Of a stretch of DNA of 33,607 nt, positions 8,456 through 18,322 are shown one piece after another. The notes under the pieces are model-generated. The model saw only the letters and a program-made list of their open reading frames with translations. It had not been told where the DNA came from and did not search any database. Position numbers and translations under genes: made by a program. Every line of letters starts with the position of its first letter. Within the stretch, counting starts at the first letter, position 1. Source of the DNA: an uncultured archaeon (GTDB lineage Archaea > Altiarchaeota > Altiarchaeia > IMC4 > SCGC-AAA252-I15); NCBI GenBank assembly GCA_902384455.1, contig CABMCB010000103.1:1-33607 (forward strand). The letters are read 5' to 3'.

Positions 8456-9010
8456 ATGAGAAGAGAACCAAATAGTGTTGGAGAGGAAACAAAACAGGAA
8501 GAATTTGAACCGTATGGACCATACAAAGTAGAAGTTTCAATAAAGCCAGGAGGTAGACGAATAGAAGAACAGGAAGTAGGTTCTTTTTGTAACGCACCAT
8601 GTATGGACGTAGTCTCCGGCTCGAGAGGATGCTATATTTTTTGTATGAAAGTTTCCAATACTATGTTACCAGGGTATATAGGGAAGGCAACGAAAGATTT
8701 CAAGAGTGAAATTTTTTCACCTCATAAGTTAGATATATATAATTCTGTTTTAACAGATTATGAAAGAAAGTATAAACCATTTATCCTGTTTTTGATCCCA
8801 AAAAAAAGGAAGGGAAAAACTAACAAAAAAGCGATAGATGAGTTGGAAACGTATTTGATTAATAACGCAAGTGAGGTTAACCCGCGACTAAGAAACAAAA
8901 GGAAGATAAGGAAACCTAGCCGATGGGTGATAAAAGGCATTAGTTCGCAGATACATGGCGTACCAAAAAAAGAACTAAGAGAACTTAAACGCTTAATTGG
9001 TAAGGCATAG
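8456..9010 (+). CDS. GIY-YIG-superfamily nuclease (AT-rich, probably horizontally acquired)
   Basis: GCYIF...YIGKA bipartite motif, downstream ELE (metal-binding Glu) and NPRLRN (conserved Asn); clearly more AT-rich than neighbours; first in-frame ATG at 8456. Confidence 0.7.
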   Translation: MRREPNSVGEETKQEEFEPYGPYKVEVSIKPGGRRIEEQEVGSFCNAPCMDVVSGSRGCYIFCMKVSNTMLPGYIGKATKDFKSEIFSPHKLDIYNSVLTDYERKYKPFILFLIPKKRKGKTNKKAIDELETYLINNASEVNPRLRNKRKIRKPSRWVIKGISSQIHGVPKKELRELKRLIGKA

Positions 9011-12722: not shown

Positions 12723-13928
12723 ATGATTGAGTGGCTCATGTTCCTGAGTATAGGCTGCGTCCTTGGCACAATATCCGGTATAACGCCAGGACTACACATA
12801 AACACAATAGCCGCAATAGGCCTTGGAGTGTACAGCGCGCTCTCGTTGAACGGCGTAGAGTACGCCGTGATTATGACGTCTATGGCGGTAACTCACGCTT
12901 TCCTTGACTTCCTCCCCTCCATCTACTTGGGCGTGCCCAATGAAGAAACCGCCTACTCAGCGCTTCCGGCCCACCGTCTTGTTTTAGAAGGCAGAGGATT
13001 GAAGGCCGTGCTTTTGACTACATACGGGGGAATTATCGGAATCATAACGTCTCTTATGCTCATACCCATCGCGCTCGTGATTCTTCCGTGGGTGCACCAA
13101 GAACTCAGGGAGGTAATGTATGCAGTCGTTGCCGTAAGCGTAGCTTACCTTGTGTTACGTGAAAAAGGAAAAAGAAAAATTGCGGCATTGACTGTATTAA
13201 CCCTGTCTGGAACGCTTGGCTTACTCATGTTTAAACAGACGGCCCTCTCAAGCGCCCAAATGTTCTTCCCCGTATTTTCAGGCTTATTTGGGATGGCAAA
13301 CCTAATTACGGCGCTCCCCGCCAAGACTGCACGAATACCTCAGGAGCCATACGCCCGCACCACACTAGATGGAAGTTCAATAAAAGCAGGAGTCTTAGGT
13401 TCACTAGGCGGAGCGATTGTCGGCGTGCTACCATCAATGAGCCCGGGACAAGTAGCCATCATTTTATACAGCAGATTTAAGGCCAGCACAGAGGAGTTCC
13501 TTGTTTCAATAGCGGCAATAAACACAAGCGACGCAATTTTTAGTTTCGTCTCGCTTTATGCTCTTGGCAATCCAAGAAGCGGCGTCGCAGTAGCCGTCGG
13601 AAAAGTCATCAATATGACATGGCCCGACTTACTTTTGATTGTGGGAACGGCAGCCATCACAGTGCTGCCGGCGGCGGTTATCCAAATTAAACTTGGAAGA
13701 CAACTAAACAAAGTCTACGACAAAGTGCCCGAAAAAAACCTAAATTACGCGGCAATACTGCTTGTGTTAGCCCTTGTGACGTACTTTACAGGAGCATACG
13801 GCGTCTTTACCCTTGCCGTCGCCACGGCCATAGGGATACTGCCGATACAGTTAGGCATAAGCAGAACCCACCTGATGGGCATATTGGTTGTGCCCACCTT
13901 TATCCGATTTATGGGAATTACCGGATAA
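12723..13928 (+). CDS. TctA/DUF112-family (tripartite tricarboxylate transporter-like) membrane protein
   Basis: GITPGLHIN, HAFLDFLPSIYLGVP, LPAHRLVLEGRG, GNPRSG, RTHLMG. Confidence 0.88.
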   Translation: MIEWLMFLSIGCVLGTISGITPGLHINTIAAIGLGVYSALSLNGVEYAVIMTSMAVTHAFLDFLPSIYLGVPNEETAYSALPAHRLVLEGRGLKAVLLTTYGGIIGIITSLMLIPIALVILPWVHQELREVMYAVVAVSVAYLVLREKGKRKIAALTVLTLSGTLGLLMFKQTALSSAQMFFPVFSGLFGMANLITALPAKTARIPQEPYARTTLDGSSIKAGVLGSLGGAIVGVLPSMSPGQVAIILYSRFKASTEEFLVSIAAINTSDAIFSFVSLYALGNPRSGVAVAVGKVINMTWPDLLLIVGTAAITVLPAAVIQIKLGRQLNKVYDKVPEKNLNYAAILLVLALVTYFTGAYGVFTLAVATAIGILPIQLGISRTHLMGILVVPTFIRFMGITG

Positions 13929-15129
13929 GCGGCTTAGAAAGATGCCTGCGCGCCCCAACATCCGCCTCATACCACCCCGGAAGCACGTCACGACGTACAG
14001 ACACCTGCTTATCACCCGCCTTCTTACCACATTTCTTACACTTGAACCCCTTCCCAGACCCCGCACTAGTCATAGACTTCCCACAGCAAACAGGAGCACG
14101 CCGCACCATCTTCTCTTCCAATGATAAAACACCGATTTTCTCCAAATTAATCGTTTTGACGTACTTTCCAACACCCCCACAAATAACCACGCGGTCACCC
14201 GAACCAAGACCCTTAAGTACATCCCTCAACCTTCCGCTCTGCCTATACGCGGCCACATCTAAAGACCCTGAACCATCAGACACACCCAAAACAACATGCC
14301 CCCCAGACAACACACGCGCAGAAGACGAAACAACAACCTCCGCACACACATTATCATAAGGCAACACCTCAGACAGCTTCTTCATCCTTAAGTGAGCGTC
14401 AGTGCCCTGATTGGTGAAAAACACCTGCTTAAACTCAACAGGCTCAAACGCAGACACCATATTGTCCGCCTCTTCAACAGCTTCGCGCGATAAACCGCGT
14501 ACGCCATAAAGAACCGGGTCAGGCCCATGAGGCGCAATAAGAACACGGCCAGACTCCGGATCAACGTTGCCGAAAGTATCCAACGCTAACGAATCCATGC
14601 GAATAACGCTTTCCTCGTCTATCCTCCTTTTTTTACCGCAGTTTTCAGGCGAACGATACGCCAAAAGCTCCCAAGTATGAGGCTCATCCTTTGTGAAACC
14701 CAACGCAGCAACAGCCCCCACAATACCGCGGCCGCCGTTCAAACCTATGACTTCTATTCCGGCCTTATTTGCAACTTCTTGCGCGTCGTCTATTGTGACG
14801 TGCTCGCTTACTGTGCGGCGGTAGAATTCCGTTAGGATGCGTTGACTGCTTTTTGATGTTTCTGCGAGGAATGCAACTCCGGGCTGCGTGTTTGGTGAGT
14901 GGACGTGAGCAAGCCGGCGGACTTCTGCCAGTACTGCTGCTTTCGGGTCGCCATCTAAGGTAAGAGCTAACGCCGCGTTCCCGCGTGTCTTATAGGGGAT
15001 GTTGGGGTTAAGGCGGACTAAAGCAGGGTCTTGGCTACCCCCCAGTTTCTTCTGCAAAAGCGCGGCCAAGTATGTGGTGCACATGCCGTCTTTGCTGTCT
15101 GTGTCGTCTATTCCAACTCGCATACGCAT
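13918..15129 (-). CDS. tiaS: tRNA(Ile2) agmatinylcytidine synthetase
   Basis: IGIDDTDS..GMCTTY-type motif, LVRLNPNIPYKTRGN, PHGPDPVLYGVRG, TNQGTD, C-terminal Zn ribbon, RRHLSKP. Confidence 0.96.
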   Translation of the reverse strand: MRMRVGIDDTDSKDGMCTTYLAALLQKKLGGSQDPALVRLNPNIPYKTRGNAALALTLDGDPKAAVLAEVRRLAHVHSPNTQPGVAFLAETSKSSQRILTEFYRRTVSEHVTIDDAQEVANKAGIEVIGLNGGRGIVGAVAALGFTKDEPHTWELLAYRSPENCGKKRRIDEESVIRMDSLALDTFGNVDPESGRVLIAPHGPDPVLYGVRGLSREAVEEADNMVSAFEPVEFKQVFFTNQGTDAHLRMKKLSEVLPYDNVCAEVVVSSSARVLSGGHVVLGVSDGSGSLDVAAYRQSGRLRDVLKGLGSGDRVVICGGVGKYVKTINLEKIGVLSLEEKMVRRAPVCCGKSMTSAGSGKGFKCKKCGKKAGDKQVSVRRDVLPGWYEADVGARRHLSKPLIR

Positions 15130-15171
15130 AGTTTATGTGCCGTGTGCAGTTAAAATACGACGGTTAGGCAG

Positions 15172-15360
15172 TAAGTCAAGATTGTAAGTCATGGGTTTGA
15201 CGTATTTTGTTTAAGTGACTTATTTTTGTGACTTGTTTTTTAGAAGATTTTATTAAATTTTGACTTTTGAGGTGTTTGTGAGAGTTGTGTGAGAGATATG
15301 TTTTTAAGCAGGTTTGTAGATAAGTTATTGTACGTCACGGTGACGTACTTTCTTGACGTA
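15172..15360. repeat. Array of nine TGAC(G/T)TN heptads in both orientations in an AT-rich intergenic region
   Basis: Reverse copies at 15172, 15185, 15331; forward copies at 15198, 15216, 15229, 15261, 15341, 15354; seven match TGACKTA exactly; 13-bp spacing recurs four times. Confidence 0.8.
15330..15348. promoter_or_regulatory. Perfect 19-bp palindrome GTACGTCAC-G-GTGACGTAC, candidate operator at the predicted transcription start of the ATPase gene
   Basis: 9-bp perfect arms about 25 bp downstream of a TATA-like TTTTTAAG (15301-15308). Confidence 0.7.
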
Positions 15361-15367
15361 TAATAAC

Positions 15368-16525
15368 ATGGAAAGAGGCGCATACTATCGAAAATTCGGA
15401 TGGAAACTCAGCCCATTCATTAAGTCGTCTGCGATGGACATACCCATCGTAGAAAGACACGGAGAATACGCGGAAATCCAAGAATGCATAAACGGCTGGG
15501 ACAGGATAATCGTGGTAACAGCACCCATAGGATACGGAAAAACAACGTTCATGAACCAGCTGATAAGAAAAAAGCCGCCCGAAATAGACTACCTCGTTTC
15601 ATTCGACGCATACGAAGAACCCGAAGAAGTAATGCAGAGGATAACAAACGCACTCCCATTTTGGAAAAGATGGAACCTCTCAAAAACAGACCACACAAGC
15701 TTCGGCGGCGAACTAAGCAAAAGATTAGGAAACAAAAAAATGCTCCTAACATTTGACGAAGCACAAGACTACAAACCAGAATTATACAAATGGCTAAGGA
15801 TAGTAAACGACCGCGCAGCCAACGTATTCATGGCCTTCTTCGGATTACCAGGCCTTGAAGACATAATTTCGGCCGAATCCTCTTTCAGAGACCGAAAAAG
15901 TAAGTCAATAACACTAAAGCCACTTTCTGTTGGGGAATTGGGGGGAGTGGTTGAATTACGCATCCGCTGGGCCCAAGGGACGGGAACCAAACCCTTTACC
16001 GATGAAGGCCTGCGGAGGCTCTGCGAGTCTGCTCACCACGTGCCTCGCCTCCTTTTGGATAACGGACAGAAGGTGATTGAATACTGCGCCAGAAACGACA
16101 TTTTCACCATTGATGCCTCAACCGTGGAAAAAGGCCTTGGAGACTCGCCTGCAGAACAAAGGATGAAAGAGTCTACCGCTGCCGTTTTTACTGACAAAGA
16201 GGACGTTAAACAGGCAGCAGCCGAACAAAAAATGTACATTAATTTCATGGAGGAGCTTTCACCCACGCAACAGGACATAATGCGCCTCCTCTTAGAGAAG
16301 GAAAGCCTAAGCATCCCGGAGATAAGCGAGGCCCTGAACAAAGACATACGCAGCCTTGGATCGCTGATTAGGAAATTAAGAGGCCTAAATGAGGCAGAAG
16401 TTAAGCGTAAGCCGAATGTGCCTTATCCGCTTATCGTTAGGGTTGGAAAGAGTGTGCGGCTTAACAGGCGGGTGGATGTGTATGCGTTGTCTGACAACGC
16501 CAGGAGGTTGCTTGCGCGCAGTTAG
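15368..16525 (+). CDS. ExeA-like AAA+ ATPase with C-terminal winged helix-turn-helix
   Basis: N-terminal YYRKFGWKLSPF (cf. ExeA Y..FFGL...PF), Walker A APIGYGKTT, Walker B LLTFDEAQ, HVPR sensor-2-like motif; LSPTQQDIMRLLLEKESLSIPEISEAL wHTH; ATG at 15368 preferred over TTG at 15353. Confidence 0.8.
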   Translation: MERGAYYRKFGWKLSPFIKSSAMDIPIVERHGEYAEIQECINGWDRIIVVTAPIGYGKTTFMNQLIRKKPPEIDYLVSFDAYEEPEEVMQRITNALPFWKRWNLSKTDHTSFGGELSKRLGNKKMLLTFDEAQDYKPELYKWLRIVNDRAANVFMAFFGLPGLEDIISAESSFRDRKSKSITLKPLSVGELGGVVELRIRWAQGTGTKPFTDEGLRRLCESAHHVPRLLLDNGQKVIEYCARNDIFTIDASTVEKGLGDSPAEQRMKESTAAVFTDKEDVKQAAAEQKMYINFMEELSPTQQDIMRLLLEKESLSIPEISEALNKDIRSLGSLIRKLRGLNEAEVKRKPNVPYPLIVRVGKSVRLNRRVDVYALSDNARRLLARS

Positions 16526-16532
16526 TTTCATT

Positions 16533-16579
16533 TGGCGGGGCTGCGTCAATCCGCTTTGGCGCGCACACCAGCCCCGCCA
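16533..16579 (+). other. GC-rich stem-loop between the ATPase and small wHTH genes
   Basis: TGGCGGGGCTG (16533-16543) and CAGCCCCGCCA (16569-16579) are perfectly complementary; inner hairpin CGTCAA/TTGGCG pairs fully only as + strand RNA (G-U). Confidence 0.7.
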
Positions 16580-16599
16580 GTTAATCATAAAAGGGTAAG

Positions 16600-16797
16600 A
16601 TGTACACTACGGTAGTAAGGGAGGAAGTGCTTTCGATACTGAGGAGCAGAGAAGTGGCCCCGGTTGATTCAGTCATACAAGAAGCGGAAAAAAGAAACAT
16701 CAACCCCCAAGAAGCTAGGAAAGCCATTCGATTACTGATGAATGGCGGCCTTGTTTATGAGCCGTCTCCAGGTATTTTGGAGTTTGTTGACTGGTAG
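16600..16797 (+). CDS. Small stand-alone winged-helix protein resembling the C-terminal WH of archaeal MCM/RPA32
   Basis: APVDSVIQEAEKRNI...AIRLLMNGGLVYEPSPGILEFV matches the L...G.IYEP.PG pattern. Confidence 0.7.
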   Translation: MYTTVVREEVLSILRSREVAPVDSVIQEAEKRNINPQEARKAIRLLMNGGLVYEPSPGILEFVDW

Positions 16798-16879
16798 TTT
16801 ACGGGGTGTTTTACGCCCGCACAAATGTATTTATCTATGCTTATATATTAGAAAGTTTTAGTATAGTTTGAGGGAATAT

Positions 16880-17041
16880 ATGAGAAAGAAGATTATGGTC
16901 ACCCTTAATGACGAACAATATACGCGTTTGTCAGCGTCTAATGAGCTGGGAGACACGGACAGTGAACGTATGAGAAACGCCTTCATCATCTACGACAACA
17001 TGAAGGATTTGTTAGAAGTCATAAAGAAACTGAAAGAATAA
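16880..17041 (+). CDS. 53-aa ribbon-helix-helix (CopG-like) DNA-binding protein, not in the ORF track
   Basis: My translation: MRKKIMVTLNDEQYTRLSASNELGDTDSERMRNAFIIYDNMKDLLEVIKKLKE; alternating beta strand KIMVTL, helix, G.TDSE..R turn and helix; GAGGGA SD and TTATATA upstream. Confidence 0.7.
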   Translation: MRKKIMVTLNDEQYTRLSASNELGDTDSERMRNAFIIYDNMKDLLEVIKKLKE

Positions 17042-17047
17042 GTTACG

Positions 17048-18322
17048 TTACGGCTCTGTTCGCGCAGTAATCTCTCCAGCTACGGGGGAAACAAGCATAT
17101 TAGAGGCCGCTTTTACATCGCCCACCTGAGAGAGAACCCACATCAACTTCACGTAAGCCACCTCAGACAGCATATTCTCGCAATAAACGACGCCCATACT
17201 ACTTAGTTTGCGCAGATTTGAGTAAACGTGAGGATGAACCCGCCCATAAAGGCACTGCGTAGTCATAGCAAGAAGCATGCCAGATTCAACAGCCCGTTCT
17301 ATCCCGGGGATAATGTTGTTCTCGCTGTTTGTCGGCACATGACCCAACGCTGTGCCCTCTATCACTATACCGCGATAACCCTTATCAACAAAGTAATCTA
17401 TCGCGTCCGCCGGCATGCCGGGATAAACCTTAAGCAACCCCACCTTCTCCTCAAACCCGCCCTTTACATCAGGCAGACTGTTATCACGGACCTTATGCTT
17501 GCCGTTTAAGACGTGTATTTTACCGTCGATCGTTATTCTCGCCAACGGAGCGTCGTTTATGCTCTGGAAAGCATCCCGCCTGCTTGTGTGCATCTTCCTT
17601 ACATTCACCCCCCTGTGCGCAAGACACGCTCCGTCTGTCATGTTCTCATGCATAACAAGAGAAACGCCCGCAATAGGCCCCCCGGCGAACACTGCCGAAC
17701 AAAACAGGTTTAGGAACGAGTCGCTGCTGCCGCGGTCGCTCGACCTCTGGCTACCGGTAAATACGACAGGCTTGCCTAGACCGGACAAGAGAAAGGACAA
17801 CGCAGCAGTGCTGAAATGCATAGTATCCGTCCCATGAGTCACGATAACACCGTCCGAATCACTTAGCGCATCGACGACAGCATCCGCCATTTGAACCCAT
17901 TTCTTAGGAGTCATGTCCTCAGACATAACATTCATAACAGCCTTCGCAGACAAGTTAGCATGCTCTGATATTTCAGGCACAGCAGCCACCAAATCTTCAG
18001 CAGTCACCGCCGCAGAGACACCGCCGGTTTGATAATCCACCCGCGAAGATATTGTCCCCCCCGTCGATAAAACGGCAACGGTCGGCAGTTTATTTGATGT
18101 TTTAATCGACTCTCTACGAGGGGGGGATGTAGGAACGTGGCGAGAAACCACGTCCATGCTAAGAATCCTCTTTCTGTCCACGCCCATATTGTATCCGGAA
18201 CTGAGTTTCAGGGTTATGAAATCGGAAGAAAGCAGCTCCGGACGCTCCATCCACACGCCTTCAACCACTCCATCAGGCGTGACTATTTTTACTTTATCTC
18301 CTGGCAGAGGTTTATCAGACAT
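17048..18322 (-). CDS. gatD: Glutamyl-tRNA(Gln) amidotransferase subunit D
   Basis: LKLSSGYNMG N-domain, STGGTISSRVDY.TG, HGTDTM, GSQRSSDRGSSD, RKMHTSRRDAF. Confidence 0.96.
   Translation of the reverse strand: MSDKPLPGDKVKIVTPDGVVEGVWMERPELLSSDFITLKLSSGYNMGVDRKRILSMDVVSRHVPTSPPRRESIKTSNKLPTVAVLSTGGTISSRVDYQTGGVSAAVTAEDLVAAVPEISEHANLSAKAVMNVMSEDMTPKKWVQMADAVVDALSDSDGVIVTHGTDTMHFSTAALSFLLSGLGKPVVFTGSQRSSDRGSSDSFLNLFCSAVFAGGPIAGVSLVMHENMTDGACLAHRGVNVRKMHTSRRDAFQSINDAPLARITIDGKIHVLNGKHKVRDNSLPDVKGGFEEKVGLLKVYPGMPADAIDYFVDKGYRGIVIEGTALGHVPTNSENNIIPGIERAVESGMLLAMTTQCLYGRVHPHVYSNLRKLSSMGVVYCENMLSEVAYVKLMWVLSQVGDVKAASNMLVSPVAGEITARTEP

Follow-up and report, generated by a model that had tools for sequence, protein, structure and literature searches.

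An AAA+ ATPase of Altiarchaeota with its own heptad array: a cassette that looks like an undescribed kind of site-specific DNA machine

What does a short cassette of DNA-binding proteins, preceded by an array of seven-nucleotide repeats, do in the chromosome of an uncultured archaeon? The question is raised by contig CABMCB010000103.1 of the Altiarchaeota assembly GCA_902384455.1, whose whole length of 33,607 nucleotides was analysed and is referred to below as the window; it is contig C103 of a genome of 2,411,449 bp (2.41 Mb) in 103 contigs. The cassette begins with an AT-rich spacer of 238 bp (15130..15367, GC about 0.35–0.36), which holds the heptad array and presumed divergent promoters. 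Three genes follow, all on the + strand: an AAA+ ATPase of 385 aa (15368..16525), recognised by AAA_22, a structure model and a family alignment; a stand-alone winged-helix (WH) protein of 65 aa (16600..16797); and a ribbon-helix-helix (RHH) protein of 53 aa (16880..17041) with an AT-rich upstream region of its own. An earlier note, made from the sequence alone, had described three co-oriented genes of the DNA-binding type, and this description is borne out, with a C-terminal winged helix-turn-helix (wHTH) domain in the ATPase. To our knowledge, archaeal origins and segregation systems have been characterised in only a few cultivated lineages, and neither for Altiarchaeota nor for most DPANN do we know of anything comparable.

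The locus is no artefact, and it does not correspond to an ordinary annotated system. The cassette looks like an undescribed kind of site-specific DNA machine, and its type is best filed as an initiator-clade AAA+/WH protein with cognate repeats beside its gene. As to its cellular role, we lean tentatively towards an ATP-dependent regulatory switch, which would have its own operon as the main target and act on a few other promoters besides. Literature searches, with subscription journals and supplements outside their scope, returned no paper on this family or on an Altiarchaeota origin.

The spacer carries nine heptad sites, the number claimed at first sight, and these can now be resolved into seven exact copies of TGACKTA (15172, 15185 and 15331 on the − strand; 15198, 15216, 15341 and 15354 on the + strand) and two TGACTT hexamers. 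They form two clusters. The distal one (15172..15266) consists of TAAGTCA at 15172 and 15185 (−), followed by TGACGTA at 15198, TGACTTA at 15216 and TGACTT at 15229 and 15261 (+); its inverted-then-direct layout, with a spacing of mostly 13 bp, recurs in relatives. The proximal one (15331..15360) comprises TACGTCA at 15331 (−) and TGACGTA at 15341 and 15354 (+), and includes a perfect 9+9 palindrome, GTACGTCAC-G-GTGACGTAC; 7 bp separate its end from the ATG. The start of the ATPase was placed at this ATG (15368) rather than at the TTG (15353) chosen by the open reading frame (ORF) program because that is where the N-termini of 45 aligned family members agree; in the same manner, 14 aligned sequences fix the start of the RHH protein at 16880. 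Between the clusters lies a gap of 63 bp with a TATA-like box, TTTTTAAG (15301..15308, +), which is the candidate promoter element of the ATPase gene, and a similar element, (A/G)GNTTTTTA(A/T), is found between the two clusters in most relatives. Two tandem TGTGAGAG motifs (15277..15295, +) stand immediately 5' of the box. The related AACTCTCACAT is present 5' of the TATA-like box of the RHH gene in five relatives (L014, L017, L018, L019 and L021), and the TGTGAGAG/AACTCTCACAT motif may be the site of a second factor, possibly of the RHH protein itself.

The heptads are concentrated at the cassette on every scale considered. The whole window holds 17 of them versus 7.27 ± 3.16 in shuffled sequences, and none of 100 shuffles reached 17. 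Although the genome contains 492 heptads in its 2,411,449 bp, nowhere but at the cassette spacer do at least three occur per 250 bp, and paired sites are found at the cassette locus only, except for one GC-rich pair on contig C100. The array has a counterpart at the other end of the cassette: a degenerate heptad with one mismatch, TAAGTtA (17039..17045, −), overlaps the stop codon of the RHH gene, and relatives have an exact TAAGTCA. A site no more than 60 bp after the RHH stop codon was found in 9 of 12 relatives, and 12 post-RHH sites were counted in 756 bp. For the 12 RHH-bearing relatives, the heptad density is thus 15.9 per kb after the RHH gene and 20 per kb in the 300 bp that precede the ATPase gene, against 0.6 per kb within the ATPase gene and 1.0 per kb in the flanks.

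Comparison with relatives indicates that these parts belong together. Orthologues of the ATPase (50–61% identical) are encoded in 15 other genomes of the phylum set, of which f1, the family to which the window belongs, and f2 together account for 14 and f6 for one. The synteny set comprised 14 loci (L013–L026), two of which, L015 and L023, end 197 and 100 bp after the ATPase gene. The RHH gene lies 3' of the ATPase gene in all 12 loci that reach far enough, with gatD (Glu-tRNA-Gln amidotransferase subunit D) convergent on it in 12/12; on the other side, tiaS (tRNA-Ile2 agmatidine synthetase) is divergent upstream in 12/12 loci extending that far. In the window these neighbours, which lie outside the cassette, occupy 13918..15129 on the − strand (tiaS, with TiaS_FLD at 1e-34, TiaS_TCKD and Zn_ribbon_TiaS) and 17048..18322 on the − strand (gatD, with Asparaginase at 1.5e-59 and GatD_N at 8e-13). 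Of the reading frames in the gatD–tiaS interval, those of the ATPase, the WH protein and the RHH protein alone are conserved in relatives. The linkage of all three genes, on which the earlier note had built, holds for the ATPase and RHH genes in every one of the 12 loci and breaks down for the WH gene, which is present in 3 of the 12 relatives with sufficient downstream sequence and in this genome; it is an optional part of the cassette and does not belong to the core.

The repeats, too, are conserved in relatives, as the reading in the earlier note requires: all 12 tiaS–ATPase spacers that could be examined carry heptads. Together with the window, these 13 spacers contain 79 hexamer-core sites, from three to nine each. 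The commonest spacing of neighbouring sites in the same orientation is 13 bp (16 of 34 pairs), the last site ends 2–11 bp before the ATG in 9/13 spacers, and in 12/13 the clusters are opposed around a gap of 23–101 bp with a GC content of 0.19–0.35; in the remaining one (L023) the gap is 8 bp. Of the 29 tiaS loci that represent other genomes, none that lacks the ATPase has a heptad cluster, so the heptads belong to the cassette and not to tiaS, and regulation of tiaS by the heptads as their main role was rejected on the same ground. In two of the loci that lack the ATPase, gatD lies directly upstream of tiaS on the same strand with a gap of 265 bp (L051 and L057, in G030 and G031), in two more it lies about 0.9 kb from tiaS (L052 and L054, in G024 and G026), and at two contig edges (L071 and L062) heptads adjoin tiaS where the ATPase gene would begin. 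The unit formed by the array, the ATPase gene, the facultative WH gene, the RHH gene and the terminal site is a discrete insertion between gatD and tiaS, and it occupies the same site across several genera and two families.

The ATPase is composed of an N-terminal GW..SPF motif, which we take to be typical of ExeA, an AAA+ base, a lid, a disordered linker (residues 268–289) and the C-terminal wHTH (about residues 290–385). Among Pfam families, AAA_22 matches with 39.3 bits (cut-off 27), AAA_14 matches as well and ATPase_2 weakly; the wHTH matches (residues 297–345) are generic and below their cut-offs, and none of the Pfam matches is to a ParA-type family (ParA/CbiA/AAA_31). The Walker A sequence is APIGYGKT, and the deviant ParA motif KGGxGK is not present. 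Across the 45 aligned members, the GW..SPF motif is nearly invariant, and residues G55, G57, K58 and T59 of Walker A, D130 and E131 of Walker B, R174/D175/R176, R198 and P226/R227 are fully so; a C-terminal RKLRGL...SD..RR block is largely invariant (L337, R338, G339, L340, S375, D376 and R380). Because Walker A and B, R174/R176 and R227 have been kept in all 45 members, the protein looks, as far as its sequence tells, catalytically active.

The AlphaFold (AF2) model of the ATPase, with a predicted local distance difference test (pLDDT) score of 89.7, consists of an AAA+ base, a lid and a winged helix. Its best Foldseek matches are Cdc6/Orc1 proteins (7jgr_G at 5.9e-11, 2qby_A and 1fnn_A), followed by RuvB and NLRs. 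Structural comparison with VIA again put Cdc6/Orc1 first, with Z from 17.3 to 18.1 over residues 4–385 (7jgr_G 18.1, 1fnn_A 17.8, 1w5t_C 17.7, 2qby_A 17.4), then MuB (8xvc_A, 16.3), TnsC (7m99_A, 16.2), PABY2304 (2qen, 15.7), SSO1545 (2fna, 15.0) and NLRs (about 15), and differences of 1–2 units of Z are small. The predicted fold safely places the protein in the neighbourhood of initiators, MuB, TnsC and STAND ATPases and gives it the three-domain order of Orc1/Cdc6. The initiator-specific motif of Orc1/Cdc6 is an additional, DNA-contacting helix between beta2 and beta3; between the strands 75–79 and 125–129 the ATPase model has three helices (85–95, 98–101 and 112–120), one of which may or may not be its equivalent. 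In sequence searches the kinship does not appear. TIGR02928 (Orc1/Cdc6, cut-off 181.3 bits) has 25 matches in the genome at E ≤ 1 and none at 15368–16525; Cdc6_C (PF09079) matches on contigs C71 and C33 only and not the ATPase; and hhalign of the ATPase against the genome's own Orc1 gives a probability of 11%. A search of PDB sequences with the ATPase profile yielded weak wHTH and P-loop matches only, the best with an E-value of 0.009. The description of the ATPase as neither ParA nor a recognisable Orc1/Cdc6 therefore stands with regard to ParA and to the Orc1/Cdc6 sequence models, and has to be given up with regard to the fold, which is closest to Orc1/Cdc6. The earlier note had also asked about the canonical genes, and these are present: orc1/cdc6 at C71:9912-11096 (347 bits) and C76:3747-4775 (240 bits), with a partial copy on C33, and two genes of the ParA/MinD family on C51, so that nothing is obviously missing from the genome.

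Three further groups of ATPases resemble the cassette protein in part. It is like ExeA/GspA (COG3267) in matching AAA_22 above the cut-off and in its N-terminal G(L/W)..PF, and JGI labels many of the homologues ExeA; unlike ExeA/GspA, it has a C-terminal wHTH, the cassette lacks a type II secretion or polysaccharide context, and TIGR03015 is matched far below its cut-off (34.8 versus 324.5 bits). It shares a close AAA+ core fold (Z about 16) with MuB, TnsC and TniB and has a weak match to phrog_296, 'DNA transposition protein' (7.7e-6), whereas those proteins bind DNA without sequence specificity, have no C-terminal wHTH and are encoded beside transposases. The archaeal 'ATPase + WH' proteins PABY2304 (2qen) and SSO1545 (2fna), of the Pfam family ATPase_2, have a similar overall architecture, but their sequence similarity is sub-threshold.

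A profile search with the ATPase returned 10,651 proteins at E ≤ 0.001, of which 27 reached E ≤ 1e-30. The close family is confined to Altiarchaeota. The wider family (profile, E ≤ 1e-12) was detected in 23 of 61 Altiarchaeota genomes, many of which are 60–90% complete; it is present in 16/20 genomes of f1, 1/1 of f2, 4/22 of f6 and 1/1 of f7, and in none of f3, f4, f5, f8 and f9. On plasmids, phages and viral contigs the family was not found, and the matches there were distant bacterial ExeA-like genes or extended over the P-loop only; the nearest plasmid-borne matches are bacterial ExeA-like genes with 22–24% identity.

A central finding concerns homologues that stand beside other repeats. 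An orthologue in G014 (54% identical, its gene cut by the contig end) has five to six copies of TGTCTTA directly 5' of its ATG. The genomic surroundings of this locus (L027, G014:C186) are different. About eight CGTTGTA/TACAACG repeats lie further upstream of the TGTCTTA heptads (1150–1500), and the opposite strand encodes, about 800 bp off, an RHH paralogue with 42% identity. In G010, G011 and G013, homologues of 378 aa (22–25% identical) have seven to eight copies of TGTCAAC at 9–13-bp spacing immediately upstream and no room for an RHH gene downstream; all 15 paired GTTGACA sites of these three genomes are located at the homologue or within about 1 kb of it, and the reversed-pattern control gave 0. 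A further homologue, on G014:C78, is preceded by TTGCAGA-type repeats; an ORF with the N-terminus of an Orc1/Cdc6, as judged by eye, adjoins it (L035, 1–1166). Finally, a remote metagenomic subfamily is about 23% identical to the ATPase, and its closest named member is a Nanoarchaeia (DPANN) protein. In 28 of the 65 loci of this subfamily with sufficient upstream sequence, four or more copies of a 7-mer occur within the 300 bp ahead of the gene, against 0/65 in an in-gene control, while single shuffles average 2.0–3.0 copies and the maximum of 30 shuffles is at least four in 15/65 loci. The motif of this subfamily, TTCACGTGAA/GTGAAG, occurs as many as 20 times over 400 bp, frequently with a spacing of 11 bp. 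Gene order here (L186–L265) is an OB-fold protein, LigT, the array, the ATPase, an 86-aa PRC-barrel protein, a 100-aa HTH protein and RadA, and there is no RHH gene.

The recognition-helix region of the wHTH differs among these repeat subfamilies; the ATPase family and the repeat sequence change together. Homologues without an RHH protein keep their arrays, and this points to recognition of the repeats by the ATPase's own wHTH and not by an RHH adaptor. Most simply, the wHTH would recognise the repeats throughout, and the RHH protein would be an addition specific to the TGACTTA lineage. The analogy with ParFG or SegAB, in which an RHH adaptor reads the repeats and which had been drawn in the earlier note, is weakened by the same homologues.

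Of the two smaller proteins, the RHH protein matched no Pfam or NCBIfam family at E ≤ 1, and a Foldseek search with the monomer gave nothing at E ≤ 0.001. Its model has an extended stretch (residues 1–10) and two helices (11–19 and 27–52), a predicted beta-alpha-alpha topology as in the ribbon-helix-helix (CopG/Arc/MetJ) superfamily. A G-x-S/T turn ahead of helix 2 is a hallmark of that superfamily, and here all 14 sequences have G24 and either T or S at position 26. The VIA matches are dominated by RHH proteins, with TraM (Z 5.4) at the top; several antitoxins (4–5), omega (1irq/2bnw, 3.6–3.7) and ParB of pCXC100 (3.3) are also among them, and the Z values are low because the chain is short. 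The best PDB sequence match of the RHH profile is CopG, at a non-significant E of 0.44, and a lead from the Atlas to a CopG-domain cluster scored 0.89. With 54–81% identity to its counterparts in the 12 syntenic relatives, the RHH protein is the best conserved protein of the cassette. A co-fold of the ATPase with two RHH chains (score 0.00, mark 0.32) gave no verdict and was used neither way.

The WH protein resembles the C-terminal WH domain of MCM below the thresholds of three libraries: 17.2 bits with PF21120 (MCM_WH_arc, cut-off 26.1), 2e-4 with the C-terminal region of NF040949 and 2.9e-4 with the helicase C-terminus phrog_10371. When the genome was searched with it, the C-terminus of the MCM encoded there ranked first after the protein itself (31% over 58 aa, E 0.003). 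Another MCM-WH-like region of the same genome, at G000:C19:5301-5459, matches the 65-aa protein weakly (28% over 53 aa, E 0.16) and may be a further stand-alone WH paralogue.

We propose the following working model of the regulatory switch. The ATPase would be an initiator-clade AAA+ protein with the domain order AAA+ base, lid and WH, and its C-terminal wHTH would read the TGACKTA heptads. With ATP and the conserved arginines, it would assemble cooperatively on the distal and proximal sites and probably also on the post-RHH site, and looping from the array to the terminal site may occur. Assembly on the proximal sites would shut off the promoter of the cassette; occupancy should repress the cassette because the proximal sites follow the TATA-like box and precede the start codon, and we infer that assembly at the least represses the cassette's own promoter. 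The RHH protein, expressed from its own promoter, would be a lineage-specific second DNA-binding subunit that serves as co-repressor or adaptor. In its operation such a switch would resemble the non-initiator Orc1-2 or ATPase regulators of the MalT type.

A regulatory role is favoured because the family is patchy, because canonical orc1/cdc6, mcm and ParA/MinD genes are present, because a second heptad pair exists elsewhere, and because Orc1-2 provides a precedent. An Orc1 paralogue acting as a regulator is described in PMC9738581. Like that protein, which regulates the DNA-damage response of Sulfolobus, the cassette ATPase would use an Orc1-fold AAA+/WH body as a sequence-specific regulator, a role that for the cassette is proposed; unlike Orc1-2, a clear member of Orc1/Cdc6 with a genome-wide regulon, it has sites that are essentially confined to the cassette. 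The second heptad pair was found in two g11 genomes, in a 63-bp spacer 5' of a gene for a Lys-rich, Cys-rich membrane protein of 330 aa. At both loci (L266, G051:C10, about 2003–2050; G050:C3:442799) an identical TGACTTA-N7-TGACTTA pair is accompanied by a degenerate third copy. This spacer is a possible second target.

Several observations weigh against a regulator. Regulators normally have targets elsewhere, yet the paired sites of this genome, and likewise those of G010, G011 and G013, keep to the cassette. Nine to twenty sites over 200–400 bp are more than autoregulation usually needs. With an identity of 50–61%, versus 46–51% for TiaS, the ATPase is at least as conserved as its housekeeping neighbours, which would be uncommon in an accessory regulator. 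By structure it is most like replication initiators, and four genomes have, within the cassette, a copy of the domain by which MCM docks onto Orc1; interaction of the MCM WH domain with ORB-bound Orc1-1 (ORB, origin recognition box) is described in PMC12141716. Additionally, the RHH protein instead of the ATPase could be the heptad reader. A plain autoregulated operon, which the earlier note had allowed for, remains at least as likely as replication or segregation.

The alternative that survives best, and which we nevertheless consider rather unlikely, is a secondary replication origin with its own non-canonical initiator. The ATPase would then bind the heptads as if they were ORBs or iterons, the AT-rich stretch would unwind and MCM would be recruited; the proximal inverted repeat would double as an operator, as in iteron replicons, the RHH protein would be a CopG-like controller of copy number or initiation, and the free MCM-WH-like protein, where present, would modulate helicase docking. 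The top fold matches to Cdc6/Orc1 cover all three domains (Z 17.4–18.1, Foldseek E 6e-11), but MuB, TnsC and STAND proteins score almost as well (Z 15–16), TIGR02928 and Cdc6_C miss the ATPase, the hhalign probability against the genome's own Orc1 is the low value given above, and canonical orc1/cdc6 genes (347 and 240 bits) are present. The cis-element is unique in the genome and adjoins the gene, and in remote arrays up to 20 sites are found. In 12/13 spacers the opposed clusters around an AT-rich gap resemble the arrangement ORB3–DUE–ORB2 (DUE, DNA unwinding element) beside orc1-1 of Sulfolobus, as described in PMC12141716. The cassette is like archaeal Orc1/Cdc6 (Sulfolobus Orc1-1/oriC1) in the order AAA+ base, lid and WH and, by the same source, in the position of the gene beside unique oriented repeats around an AT-rich stretch; it is unlike Orc1/Cdc6 in that the ATPase has an ExeA-like N-terminal GW..PF motif and an RHH partner and coexists with canonical orc1/cdc6. 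The cassette repeats also differ from those of ORB origins, being 7 bp long, three to nine per spacer and often 13 bp apart.

A discrete insertion with a patchy distribution would fit an acquired origin, and high conservation likewise speaks for an origin; capture from an extrachromosomal element, however, has no direct support, since copies on plasmids, phages or viral contigs were not found. The resemblance of the WH protein to the genome's own MCM C-terminus and the non-significant match of the RHH profile to CopG point in the same direction as the fold. That the heptads are much shorter than ORB elements counts against an origin. GC skew does not help either, as it is inconsistent among contigs. 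The cumulative skew, computed contig-wide and oriented on the cassette, has its maximum no more than about 8 kb downstream of the cassette on G051:C1, G005:C1 and G043:C61; these three peaks are not independent because skew follows local gene orientation and the relatives share local gene order. On G042:C14, where 9 kb follow the cassette, nothing clear is seen, and the window's own contig has a trough. In G007, a single contig without the cassette, the skew is weak with several extrema, the sole clear orc1/cdc6 is at 1.07 Mb and tiaS at 0.55 Mb. Skew was therefore rejected as a means of placing origins in this clade: it is noisy and contradictory, and a peak and a trough cannot both mark the origin.

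AT content was rejected as an origin marker as well. Thirty-seven regions of the genome fall below a GC of 0.32 over 200 bp; the heptad spacer is not one of them, and several are far more AT-rich, so AT content alone does not single the spacer out. The sole such stretch of the window lies at 8651–8900 and is more AT-rich than the heptad spacer. Elsewhere in the same genome (G000:C79:61850-63000), a small Cys-rich ORF is bordered by two extremely AT-rich stretches, in which GC falls to 0.16; they are located about 2 kb from the contig end and hold the only other copies of CTCTCACA/TGTGAGA in an AT-rich context in the genome; this region could be a canonical origin or an integrated element. As a link to canonical origins CTCTCACA was dropped, being absent around the orc1/cdc6 genes of this genome and of G007.

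It is also conceivable, and in our judgement unlikely, that the RHH protein rather than the ATPase reads the heptads, much as omega does on pSM19035, with the wHTH binding another site (the TGTGAGAG/CTCTCACA motif) or having no role on DNA. RHH dimers are known to read short heptad arrays (title of 2bnw). The RHH gene co-occurs with TGACKTA heptads in 12/12 syntenic relatives, and a heptad is located right at its stop codon. The arrays of other short repeats that precede ATPases without an RHH partner argue against such a division of labour, as does the promoter of the RHH gene, where the motif conserved in relatives 5' of its own TATA-like box is CTCTCACAT and not a heptad.

Chromosome segregation in the manner of ParMRC, with the repeats as centromere, the RHH protein as adaptor and autorepressor and the AAA+ ATPase as a new partition motor or organiser, was the reading named first in the earlier note and seems to us improbable. 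In ParMRC of R1 and in delta/omega of pSM19035, short repeats are located at the promoter of an operon for a nucleoside triphosphatase (NTPase) and an RHH protein, form unique cis sites and serve also as operators; the parC iterons flank the parMR promoter. The cassette is similar in that its repeats flank or precede the promoter of an NTPase-plus-RHH operon, in the order repeats, NTPase and small RHH, with sites unique in the genome. The best conserved of its proteins (54–81% identity in 12 relatives) would be the adaptor, the fold matches of which include centromere- or heptad-binding RHH proteins (omega, ParB of pCXC100), all at low Z, and the extra post-RHH site could support bridging or looping. 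Unlike those systems, however, the cassette is chromosomal and its NTPase is an AAA+ protein with its own wHTH that belongs to the initiator/MuB/TnsC group and is not akin to ParA, to the actin-like ParM or to TubZ. The RHH protein is dispensable in sister subfamilies, where RHH-less ATPases keep their arrays, so that no adaptor is needed for the link between array and ATPase. Two genes of the ParA/MinD family are present elsewhere in the genome, and the family is absent from most Altiarchaeota genomes.

A relic of a Tn7- or Mu-like mobile element, in which the heptads would be former end-binding sites and the ATPase a domesticated target selector of TnsC/MuB type, is very improbable: MuB (8xvc_A, Z 16.3), TnsC (7m99_A, Z 16.2), the phrog_296 match (7.7e-6) and repeats at both borders of a discrete insertion would fit it, but there is no transposase or integrase between gatD and tiaS, the cassette keeps its site across several genera of two families with all parts under purifying selection, and the repeats overlap the promoter and do not form terminal inverted ends.

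Two smaller points complete the description of the locus. Downstream of the ATPase stop codon, a GC-rich hairpin (16534..16579, +) with a conserved loop, TCAATCCGC...GGCGCGCACA, is restricted to the four WH-bearing genomes (the window's, and those of L022, L024 and L026) and is followed by a T-run in three of them; a compensatory change affects only 1 of 16 predicted pairs, and Rfam had no match in 15000–17200, the hairpin included. A role of the cassette in defence was considered and rejected, as PADLOC gave no defence family above noise.

Going back to the ATPase and its cognate repeats, a broader reading can be put forward with some doubt: the cassette may be the first to be recognised from a family of initiator-clade AAA+/wHTH proteins that is widespread in archaea. 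Each of these proteins would bind an array of short iteron-like repeats beside its own gene, and protein and array would make up a new class of chromosomal replicator or centromere that is independent of Orc1/Cdc6 and ParA. The family would then range over Altiarchaeota and metagenomic lineages, with its closest named member in Nanoarchaeia (DPANN), and Altiarchaeales would have added to it an RHH controller and, in part of the genomes, a separate copy of the domain by which MCM docks.

Proteins annotated so far as 'AAA family ATPase', 'ExeA' or 'hypothetical' become a defined family that stands beside lineage-specific repeat arrays, which are unique or nearly so in each genome. The five protein/repeat pairs (TGACTTA, TGTCTTA, TGTCAAC, TTGCAGA and TTCACGTGAA) offer biochemists a series of specificities made by nature. 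A new principle of initiation or partition would be at hand if the assembly proved to fire replication or to mark a centromere; if it serves regulation only, it would represent a new class of ATP-driven regulator in archaea, constructed on the scaffold of Orc1.

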